IMG/VR virus record: IMGVR_UViG_2700989171_000008
Origin: a virus
Taxonomy: Duplodnaviria; Heunggongvirae; Uroviricota; Caudoviricetes
Reading direction: 5' to 3' (one strand)
Length of the DNA stretch: 4,588 nucleotides
A program made the position numbers and the translations under genes. The notes beneath the pieces are model-generated. The model was not told the DNA's origin. It was given only the letters and a program-made list of their open reading frames with translations, and made no database searches. Below are positions 2,039 to 2,465 of the stretch, in pieces (position 1 is the stretch's first letter; every line of letters begins with the position of its first letter).

Positions 2039-2247
2039 CTTTTTTTTGCAAAATTGCTGTGCAGAAATACTAACCTTCGGGCAGGCGATCATTCATAAGC
2101 ACTCTGCTTTTATTCCGATTAACTGTGAGTGGTTTGTTGGATAGAGTGCTTTCCTTATTGTATATATCGTTTCGCCCGCTTTTGCGGTTTTTTCTTTTCA
2201 AATCCCTTTCATTTCTCAGTGTAAAACTACGCCATCCGTTATTTGCG
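2039..2247 (+). repeat. Direct repeat copy 1 (about 209 bp, noncoding) ending at a gap
   Basis: Aligns base for base with 2258-2465 at a constant offset of 218, apart from 5 substitutions (2083, 2084, 2128, 2158, 2187) and a T-run of 8 versus 7. Confidence 0.85.
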
Positions 2248-2257
2248 NNNNNNNNNN
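2248..2257. other. Assembly gap (N10) of unknown true length
   Basis: Ten N placed exactly between the two near-identical repeat copies. Confidence 0.8.
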
Positions 2258-2465
2258 CTTTTTTTGCAAAATTGCTGTGCAGAAATACTAACCTTCGGGC
2301 GTGCGATCATTCATAAGCACTCTGCTTTTATTCCGATTAACTGTGGGTGGTTTGTTGGATAGAGTGCTTTCCTTACTGTATATATCGTTTCGCCCGCTTT
2401 TGCGTTTTTTTCTTTTCAAATCCCTTTCATTTCTCAGTGTAAAACTACGCCATCCGTTATTTGCG
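2258..2465 (+). repeat. Direct repeat copy 2 (about 208 bp), immediately upstream of the holin RBS
   Basis: About 97.5% identical to 2039-2247; followed directly by GGAGG (2465-2469) and the holin ATG at 2477. Confidence 0.85.

Follow-up and report, generated by a model that had tools for sequence, protein, structure and literature searches.

Between a tRNA array and a holin gene, the prophage DNA studied here (the window, a stretch of 4,588 nucleotides analysed in full) displays a non-coding unit twice. A first-pass annotation put the unit at about 209 bp and interpreted it as a small-RNA module with its own promoter and terminator, either tandemly repeated or arising from a collapsed contig overlap. 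We asked whether the duplication exists in any genome, what the unit encodes and from where it would be transcribed. The open reading frames, ARAGORN and the annotation of closed genomes identify the window as the late regulatory region of a lambdoid prophage, with Rz encoded in addition to the genes listed in Table 1.

Table 1. Positions of genes, predicted signals and RNA elements in the window.
Feature	Position	Strand	Basis or remark
DUF968 protein fragment	80-421
RusA	422-787
Antiterminator Q	778-1467		ORF and annotation of closed genome
Late promoter candidate pR' (TTGCAA-17-TATATT)	1456-1484	+	Overlaps Q 3' end; consensus scan
tR'-like intrinsic terminator (CCCGC-N6-GCGGG-T6)	1539-1560	+	Inverted repeat and terminator scan
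Predicted sigma-70 promoter of tRNA array (TTGCAA-17-TATTAT)	1628-1656	+	Followed by GC-rich CCTGCGCCC, then tRNA 5' end at 1666
tRNA array	1666-1966	+	ARAGORN, Rfam, annotation of closed genomes
tRNA-Ile2/Met(CAT)	starts 1666, cut at 1722 by N-run	+
tRNA-Lys(UUU)	1734-1810	+
tRNA-Thr(UGU)	1813-1888	+
tRNA-Gly(UCC)	1892-1966	+
Hairpin A of tRNA trailer	1968-2023	+	MFE fold; RNAalifold, 18 sequences
Hairpin B: conserved 11-14-bp outer stem around two small hairpins	2027-2097	+	Fold, covariation
Hairpin C: basal stem, 5'-side internal loop, conserved apical motif CCGAUUAAC-NNNGNGU-GGUUUGUUGGAU	2098-2150	+	Fold, covariation
Weak intrinsic terminator candidate of tRNA unit (CCGC-UUUU-GCGG-U6, -6.6 kcal/mol)	2176-2193	+	Sequence, energy, allelic series
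10-N scaffold placeholder, negative gap (207-nt overlap)	2248-2257
Second copy, Shigella 2457T-type allele of the spacer	2259-2465	+	Without hairpin B 5' arm; terminator allele GCGUUUUUUU
Class II (S21-type) holin, 71 aa, dual start (MKSM...)	2477-2692	+	ORF, PF04971, identical gene annotated in closed genomes
IS66-family element end	2703-2765		Block 3 stops there
Lysozyme	3600-4133

The two copies (2041-2247 and 2259-2465) are 207 nt each and 98% identical, with five mismatches. Three runs of exactly ten N (1723-1732, 2248-2257 and 2766-2775) divide the window into four blocks; copy 1 ends at the second run and copy 2 begins right behind it. When mapped to the closed E. coli FDAARGOS_944 chromosome (locus L001), block 1733-2247 falls at 2500-3014 and block 2258-2765 at 2808-3257, with exactly the 207 nt of the apparent repeat in common. 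Between the last base of tRNA-Gly and the holin ATG lie 292 bp in closed genomes versus 510 in the window, and 510 is the sum of 292, 207, the ten N and 1. Of 5,426 closed E. coli genomes, 523 have a match over at least 80% of the 292-nt spacer, and among the matches listed it is always one piece of 291-293 nt. Likewise, the search seed occurs once per stretch among the matches listed for 120 viral stretches from IMG/VR, and every closed locus fetched gave a single match to the covariance model described below (R1). No head-to-tail copy was found among the listed viral stretches or in the closed loci fetched.

The other N-runs behave in two ways. At the third, 2567-2692 and 2776-2901 both carry the holin 3' end (87% identical) and form the same type of unmerged overlap, while the first is a true gap with about 19 nt missing inside the tRNA-Ile gene. 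Since the runs hide both overlaps and a true gap, they are fixed placeholders and not measured gaps.

The two copies also differ in origin. Against the spacer that three closed Shigella flexneri chromosomes (L293, L297 and L298) carry in single copy, copy 2 has no mismatch, and against L001 it has four; copy 1 has one mismatch to L001 and five to Shigella. The changes in copy 2 recur in other loci and are natural variants rather than sequencing errors. Closed Shigella flexneri chromosomes, for example that of 2457T, match the last block (2776-4588) at 100% identity; the prophage there has a different backbone with DnaB, NinH and a 126-aa Q of family PF06530. Block 3 joins a Shigella-type spacer to an L001-type holin and then reaches the end of an IS66-family element, which is why the contig stops there. 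Judged by these matches, the window is a scaffold, in effect a chimera, that joins short contigs of two or more similar prophages, and its "repeat" shows one locus in the form of two alleles. Contigs of at least two lambdoid prophages from one draft genome (apparently Shigella) were ordered and joined by fixed 10-N spacers, and since overlapping contig ends were left unmerged, one spacer is seen twice.

The copies are delimited by N, the flanking blocks share 207 nt when placed on closed genomes, and each copy matches a different prophage; the duplication is therefore a scaffolding artefact and no feature of a genome. The window does display two copies in tandem orientation, as the first-pass annotation described, but a true tandem duplication in the source genome is scarcely credible, given that the N-run bounds the copies exactly, the flanking blocks overlap on closed genomes, copy 2 is the single-copy Shigella allele while copy 1 fits another backbone, tandem copies are missing from the listed viral stretches and fetched closed loci, and the same kind of overlap recurs at the next N-run. 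The contig overlap that the annotation had offered as its alternative, and the single copy in closed sequence by which an artefact would be recognised, are what we found. Reporting a duplicated small-RNA module would mislead, and that the window is a contig chimera of different prophages matters for annotators.

What does exist is a single 292-bp spacer that separates tRNA-Gly from the holin gene and, by fold and comparison of relatives, specifies a conserved non-coding RNA of three hairpins. About 10% of closed E. coli genomes carry this RNA, as do Shigella and inducible phages, among them phi467 and HK639. The + strand of the spacer folds into three consecutive long hairpins (A, B and C) followed by a small GC hairpin and a U-run, with a minimum free energy of -92.5 kcal/mol and a z-score of -4.8 on the + strand versus -2.9 on the - strand. 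The outer stem of hairpin B is a 14-nt perfect inverted repeat (2026-2039 / 2085-2098). Hairpin C is closed by AAGCACTCT (2097-2105) pairing with AGAGTGCTT (2143-2151), the 9-bp stem already noted in the first-pass annotation. That stem is real and is the covarying base of hairpin C, but the 37-nt "loop" assigned to it consists of two further conserved helices.

Relatives were drawn from closed E. coli, Shigella and IMG/VR. Scanning IMG/VR with the seed yielded 120 stretches, or 30 sequences once redundancy at 97% identity was removed; many of these non-redundant copies are only 73-81% identical to the window version, and the relative in phage HK639 is 76% identical. For hairpin A, RNAalifold on 18 sequences predicted 16 pairs, with compensatory double changes in five. 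For the hairpin B-C core (24 non-redundant copies) it predicted 38 pairs; 97.5% of the alignment cells are paired, compared with 33-51% when the partners are slid by one to three columns. Five pairs of the core are changed on both sides, accounting for 34 cells versus 12.4 in shuffles, and none of 500 shuffles reached 34. Many one-sided switches among G-U, A-U and G-C stay paired on the + strand only. All three hairpins thus keep their pairing through compensatory changes in relatives 73-80% identical, the outcome of the covariance analysis that the annotation had proposed as a check. The covariance model R1 matches the window at 2022-2157 with 141.6 bits; copy 2 (2239-2375) reaches only 98 bits.

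The first set of homologs was seeded by a 17-mer of hairpin B, TTTGCAAAATTGCTGTG, and its invariance at that place is partly by construction. A second complete scan, seeded on hairpin C only, returned 67 stretches and corrects this bias in part; in that set the 17-mer is usually conserved, not always, and several lineages differ across the interior of hairpin B. A search of 596 Gb of contigs with the 15-mer GGTGGTTTGTTGGRT gave chance matches from unrelated phyla only, the pattern being too short. We also considered a small protein: a 38-aa ORF with an ATG start is confined to close relatives and shrinks to 10 codons elsewhere, and the substitutions have no 3-nt periodicity. The description of the unit as non-coding and structured thus agrees with the + strand z-score, the covariation and the lack of codon periodicity, and the comparisons show the + strand of the region to specify a conserved structured RNA.

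What surrounds this RNA suggests how it may be made. Nearly all of 95 loci bearing the core have a tRNA array ending in tRNA-Gly either 1-3 nt or about 58 nt upstream; in the class with the longer spacing, hairpin A lies between tRNA-Gly and the B-C core. The array of the relatives runs Met/Ile(CAT), a variable tRNA, Thr and Gly. The gene downstream of the element varies (S21-type pinholin, two other holin types, other ORFs), and three unrelated Q proteins are found alongside it. About a dozen lineages carry hairpins B and C and the terminator with no tRNA within 450 nt upstream.

The tRNA arrays are preceded by a predicted promoter of the form TTGC(A/G)N-17-TATTAT/TATCAT with a GC-rich stretch, 7-9 nt before the first tRNA. 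At least ten lineages with otherwise diverged spacers keep its hexamers, its 17-nt spacing and its distance to the tRNA, as expected of a sigma-70 promoter, and the consensus scan also called it (L001 2386-2414, equal to window 1628-1656). This promoter is the likely start of the transcript. Further upstream, the scan called the pR' candidate on the closed locus (L001 2214-2242); its assignment as the late promoter follows the usual organisation of lambdoid genomes. Together with the tR'-like terminator it may specify a short 6S/IsrK-like RNA, a candidate to which weak Rfam matches to isrJ and isrK at 1487-1560, below the gathering scores, also point.

Downstream of hairpin C the GC hairpin and T-run reported in the first-pass annotation are indeed present. 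Among distinct tRNA-linked instances, 54 of 62 have such a hairpin and T-run behind hairpin C, compared with 9 of 22 others, an odds ratio of 9.8 that ignores phylogenetic relatedness. Its sequence differs from lineage to lineage; the stem found at the same place has 5-6 bp in close relatives (-13.7 kcal/mol) and 8-9 bp in other lineages. Close relatives form an allelic series of GCGGGC (20 loci, -13.7 kcal/mol), GCGGGT (15), GCGGTT (17) and GCGTTT (2), of which the window holds two members, GCGGTT in copy 1 (4-bp stem, U6, -6.6 kcal/mol) and GCGTTT in copy 2 (3-bp stem, U7, -3.3 kcal/mol). Both are below the 5-bp minimum of our terminator scan and hence were not called by it. The G-to-T change of copy 2, at 2405 (matching 2187), does weaken the stem as had been claimed, but it is the natural allele of another prophage and not a change in a tandem copy. 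In HK639, four terminators are annotated in the spacer between Q and the holin gene, one of them right after the element. By position, then, the RNA fits the 3' external transcribed spacer of a tRNA operon: it lies between the last tRNA and the candidate terminator, on the same strand and downstream of the predicted promoter.

We consider it probable that the window shows a contig artefact laid over the single-copy, structured 3' trailer of a Q-independent prophage tRNA operon, with a terminator that shields the lysis genes. For this arrangement we infer co-transcription, processing, transcript ends, stability, insulation of the lysis genes and activity of the hairpins in trans or in cis, as follows. 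The trailer of the tRNA operon would be placed in the late-gene leader, between Q with pR'-tR' and the holin gene. The sigma-70 promoter at 1628-1656 would drive the four tRNAs, and the transcript would run on through hairpins A, B and C (1968-2150) to end at the intrinsic terminator at 2176-2193. In the lysogen the tRNA promoter would fire without Q, and the terminator would keep this transcription out of the holin and endolysin genes. Processing of the tRNAs by RNase P and RNase E would free a structured RNA of about 190-225 nt, which may persist as a stable RNA like those from spacers of host tRNA operons. Upon induction, Q-modified polymerase starting at pR' would pass both tR' and the trailer terminator, and by this read-through the hairpins would join the 5' leader of the lysis mRNA. 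With a stem of 4 bp, or 3 bp in the Shigella allele, insulation by the weak window terminator may be leaky or reliant on another factor.

The RNA thus occupies a sensitive site, with a tRNA promoter that looks constitutive on one side and the lysis genes on the other. Should the trailer and its terminator shield the holin gene from Q-independent transcription, spontaneous lysis could be tuned by the natural alleles, in which the stem is eroded from 6 to 3 bp. Freed as a stable RNA, the hairpins would add to the few regulators derived from tRNA spacers and to the cluster of small RNAs located between Q and the lysis genes.

Hairpin C is also found alone, on two further basal stems; in all, one apical motif is combined with four different complementary stems, and all variants fold alike. 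A single consensus for all types was abandoned, as MAFFT puts the swapped basal stems out of register, and the variants were folded one by one. The 3' strand, GGGUGGUUUGUUGG, hardly varies, in contrast to the sequence with which it pairs. Three standalone copies all stand at the head of a + strand gene block and adjoin a minus-strand defence or candidate defence gene (AbiP2 reverse transcriptase, PDC-S60, PDC-S31); for two of them the + strand genes that follow are holin and endolysin. None is followed by a terminator, and BLAST of their contexts against annotated phages gave no match. Hairpin B likewise occurs separately, without tRNAs or terminator. Since both hairpins occur without tRNAs and terminator, their function cannot be that of a tRNA trailer alone, and the standalone copies of hairpin C favour a role that is independent of tRNAs, in cis or by binding a factor.

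Tentatively, then, hairpin C (with B) could be an undescribed class of functional RNA in lambdoid late-gene leaders, a fixed apical AACC-NNGGGU-GGUUUGUUGG carried on freely swapped stems and bordering the Q-to-lysis cargo hotspot on its downstream side, either after tRNA arrays or beside defence genes such as AbiP2. Such an RNA might bind a host factor or RNA that controls processing or stability of the lysis transcript, or might act in trans after release from the tRNA precursor; we regard this as possible, though doubtful.

Rather unlikely, in our estimate, is that the hairpins are simply a cis-acting element of the late (lysis) transcript, such as a site for processing by RNase III or RNase E, a stabiliser of the 5' end, or a put- or nut-like element that alters the response of polymerase to the terminator further on. 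The tRNA linkage would then be incidental, tRNAs being the commonest cargo of the spacer. In L272 and L110 the standalone hairpin C lies in the leader upstream of holin and endolysin genes, hairpin C directly follows a pR'-tR'-like unit in L272 and L255, and it marks the downstream edge of variable minus-strand defence cargo, all of which fits such an element. The near-invariant 3' strand with its variable partner suggests a sequence-specific ligand, and where tRNA-Gly ends 1-3 nt upstream, its processing would leave a hairpin at the 5' terminus. One standalone copy (L271), however, is not 5' of lysis genes, and the co-occurrence of three unrelated Q families argues against a phage-specific partner. 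The layout of two adjacent stem-loops loosely resembles that of the put RNAs of HK022 and HK639, which likewise span about 125 nt upstream of a terminator. HK639 carries both put and the present element, but put sites lie downstream of early promoters and the element lies in the late leader; R1 matches neither HK639 putL nor anything in HK022, and we rejected identity with the put antiterminator RNAs. Resemblances noted by eye were also set aside: a lambda boxA-like CGCUCAU is in the base-paired, covarying 3' arm of hairpin B, and likenesses to phage 21 boxB, to a k-turn or C/D-box-like motif in hairpin A and to a T-box-like UGGU were dropped as unsupported.

The trailer reading has the transcript start upstream of the tRNAs, whereas the first-pass annotation placed it inside the element, at a promoter-like TTGCAA (2046-2051) and TACTAA (2068-2073) separated by 16 nt. 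We confirm its coordinates for these hexamers, for the 9-bp stem and for the CCGC/GCGG hairpin. In favour of an autonomous sRNA gene of about 110 nt, running from this promoter (2046-2073) to the terminator at 2193, are the fair match of the -35 with its 16-nt spacer, a TTGCAA that 32 of the 40 distinct sequences in the set seeded by hairpin C retain (the other 8 lack it), a terminator downstream, and a precedent in other units of the Q-to-holin spacer that are sRNA genes with terminators of their own. We nevertheless consider it improbable. The hexamers sit within the interior of hairpin B, where the "-10" is one arm of an internal helix; of 32 distinct sequences in the same set, 26 read TACTGA here and none has T as the last base. 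A sigma-70 promoter would have conserved hexamers and a -10 with A at its second and T at its sixth position, and the last base here is A in every relative, so that the T at -7 is lacking throughout. In three lineages (L264, L289 and L267) the whole interior is replaced and the outer stem retained, and the consensus promoter scan did not call TTGCAA-16-TACTAA. A start near 2080 would drop the 5' arm of hairpin B, a stem maintained by compensation. Because this outer stem (2026-2039 / 2085-2098) covaries, a functional RNA must start upstream of 2026, and the transcription unit must be larger than the annotation proposed. Directly 5' of hairpin B, the lineages lacking tRNAs have no consistent promoter.

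A still more remote reading is that of a DNA-level element, a recombination anchor or protein-binding palindrome at the edge of the Q-to-lysis cargo hotspot, with no function as RNA. The element does sit at mosaic boundaries, with cargo upstream and terminator and holin downstream swapped around it. Against this, its long stems are maintained by compensatory changes, G-U pairs make the pairing strand-specific, and basal stems are swapped wholesale yet are still complementary; neither a homology anchor nor a dimer-binding site predicts compensated, strand-specific stems.

With Rfam 15 (E <= 1), window 1968-2200, the HK639 core and L272 gave no family matching the element, including RtT, STnc100, AgvB, AsxR, Esr41 and IsrK; in HK639 there were only sub-threshold, chance-level matches (istR, isrB, rsmX) over the part with hairpin C and the terminator. 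The conserved structured RNA therefore apparently matches no described RNA family, and the spacer RNA, though apparently undescribed, is of a known general kind. Spacers of tRNA operons can give rise to such RNAs: the 3'ETS-leuZ of the glyW-cysT-leuZ operon is a sponge for RyhB and RybB, and the rtT RNA comes from the tyrT operon. Both are non-coding and, as proposed for the element, lie between the last tRNA and an intrinsic terminator and are released by tRNA processing. In contrast to them, the element comes from a phage, is situated just 5' of lysis genes and forms three covarying hairpins within about 225 nt; it has no sequence match to them and none to the Rfam model of RtT. The tRNA gene cluster of phage T4 encodes small stable RNAs, species 1 and 2 (rnaC/rnaD), of unknown function. 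Here too structured RNAs belong to a phage tRNA cluster (the stability of the element is our inference), but T4 is virulent and has no Q or lysis-leader context. These tRNA-operon spacer RNAs and the stable RNAs of the T4 cluster are probably the closest functional analogues.

Several small RNAs share the neighbourhood between Q and the lysis genes in units that end in intrinsic terminators, namely PasA, PasC and PasD, AgvB, AsxR, STnc100 and the pR'-tR' RNA (6S/StxS/IsrK type). Of these, pasA, pasC and pasD1 are described as directly adjoining a holin/lysozyme operon of the same kind (Zhu et al. 2026, preprint). We compared the four Northern probe sequences for PasA-D (PMC8550237, table S6) with the window and 125 loci on both strands, allowing up to three mismatches, and found no match; PasA lies on the strand opposite to that of the element. 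The Rfam models of AgvB, AsxR, Esr41 and STnc100 likewise did not match the element. The candidate sRNA beside the pseudo-tRNA-Gly of EPEC prophage PP10 has no R1 match, and phage SfIV was dropped as a comparison, having no tRNAs. IpeX of the cryptic prophage DLP12 is an sRNA located, as the element is, between Q and an S21-type holin gene (essD). It is processed from the porin (nmpC) transcript (PMC12197685), and in K-12 nmpC is on the strand opposite to essD. Identity with IpeX was rejected: the DLP12 region gave no match to R1, so that the element is missing there. A bona fide STnc100 sRNA comes next after the element in HK639 and L272, and with these neighbours the spacer between Q and the holin gene is a chain of small RNA units and cargo.

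The 3' end of the holin gene occurs twice in the window, in copies that are 87% identical and lie on either side of the N-run at 2766-2775. This apparent repeat is a second artefact: blocks 3 and 4, the stretches that meet at this N-run, overlap and come from different prophages. In addition, closed Shigella flexneri chromosomes match block 4 at 100% identity, and we therefore conclude that the window is a chimeric scaffold. The last ~60 nt of block 3 correspond to the end of an IS66-family element that is present in multiple copies, on both chromosomes and plasmids, and whose insertion point lies just past the start of an rrrD-type lysozyme gene. 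This element is probably the cause of the contig break at the end of block 3.

Coordinates of features in the window and in comparison loci
Feature	Record	Coordinates	Remark
pR'-like promoter and tR'-like terminator	window	1456-1560	directly 3' of Q
Second tRNA of array	window	1734-1810
Terminator 3' stem arm with T-run	window	2184-2193; 2402-2411
Holin 3' end	window	2567-2692; 2776-2901
IS66-family match	window	2703-2765	end of block 3
tRNA-Gly 3' end	L003 (HK639)	2470-2492	TCGATTCCCGCTGCCCGCTCCAG
Split hairpin C	L030	2520-2609	interrupting sequence TGAGGTGTACTGGCAATAGCGGACAC...
Standalone hairpin C and defence genes	L271	5967-7618	defence genes on minus strand
Standalone hairpin C and defence genes	L110	2261-5638	defence genes on minus strand
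Standalone hairpin C and defence genes	L272	7527-8751	defence genes on minus strand
STnc100 (RF02076)	L126 (HK639)	44780-44985	above gathering score
STnc100 (RF02076)	L272	8805-9005	above gathering score
STnc100 (RF02076)	L110	6455-6567	above gathering score

Among relatives, the tRNA array keeps Met/Ile(CAT), Thr and Gly in place and differs in its second tRNA, this being Lys, Arg, Phe, Asn or of unassignable anticodon. In phage HK639, tRNA-Gly is reduced to its 3' end, which lies 3' of an intact tRNA-Asn and 5' of hairpin A; retention of this remnant shows that the trailer was inherited jointly with tRNA-Gly. At the distal end of the spacer element, the 3' stem arms of the terminators in the window and its relatives form an allelic series, GCGGGC, GCGGGT, GCGGTT and GCGTTT, along which the arm is eroded and the T-run lengthens. 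Read-through into the holin might be tuned by this series.

Copies of hairpin C standing without the rest of the element adjoin defence genes, namely AbiP2 reverse transcriptase (PADLOC E = 1.5e-195), PDC-S60 and PDC-S31, and the standalone hairpin seems to delimit, on the downstream side, a cargo hotspot within the leaders of late genes. Unrelated sequence, which may be the terminal part of an insertion sequence, splits the 3' arm of hairpin C in L030 and in two loci identical to it. The STnc100 sRNA genes follow immediately 3' of either the element or a standalone hairpin C; at this site the HK639 record carries terminators only, leaving STnc100 unannotated.

The unit following the late antiterminator gene Q would produce a short RNA of the type represented by lambda 6S, StxS and IsrK. 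Its Rfam matches to isrJ and isrK are weak (22-23 bits, under the gathering scores), and the corresponding region of HK639 matches isrJ with 34.6 bits.
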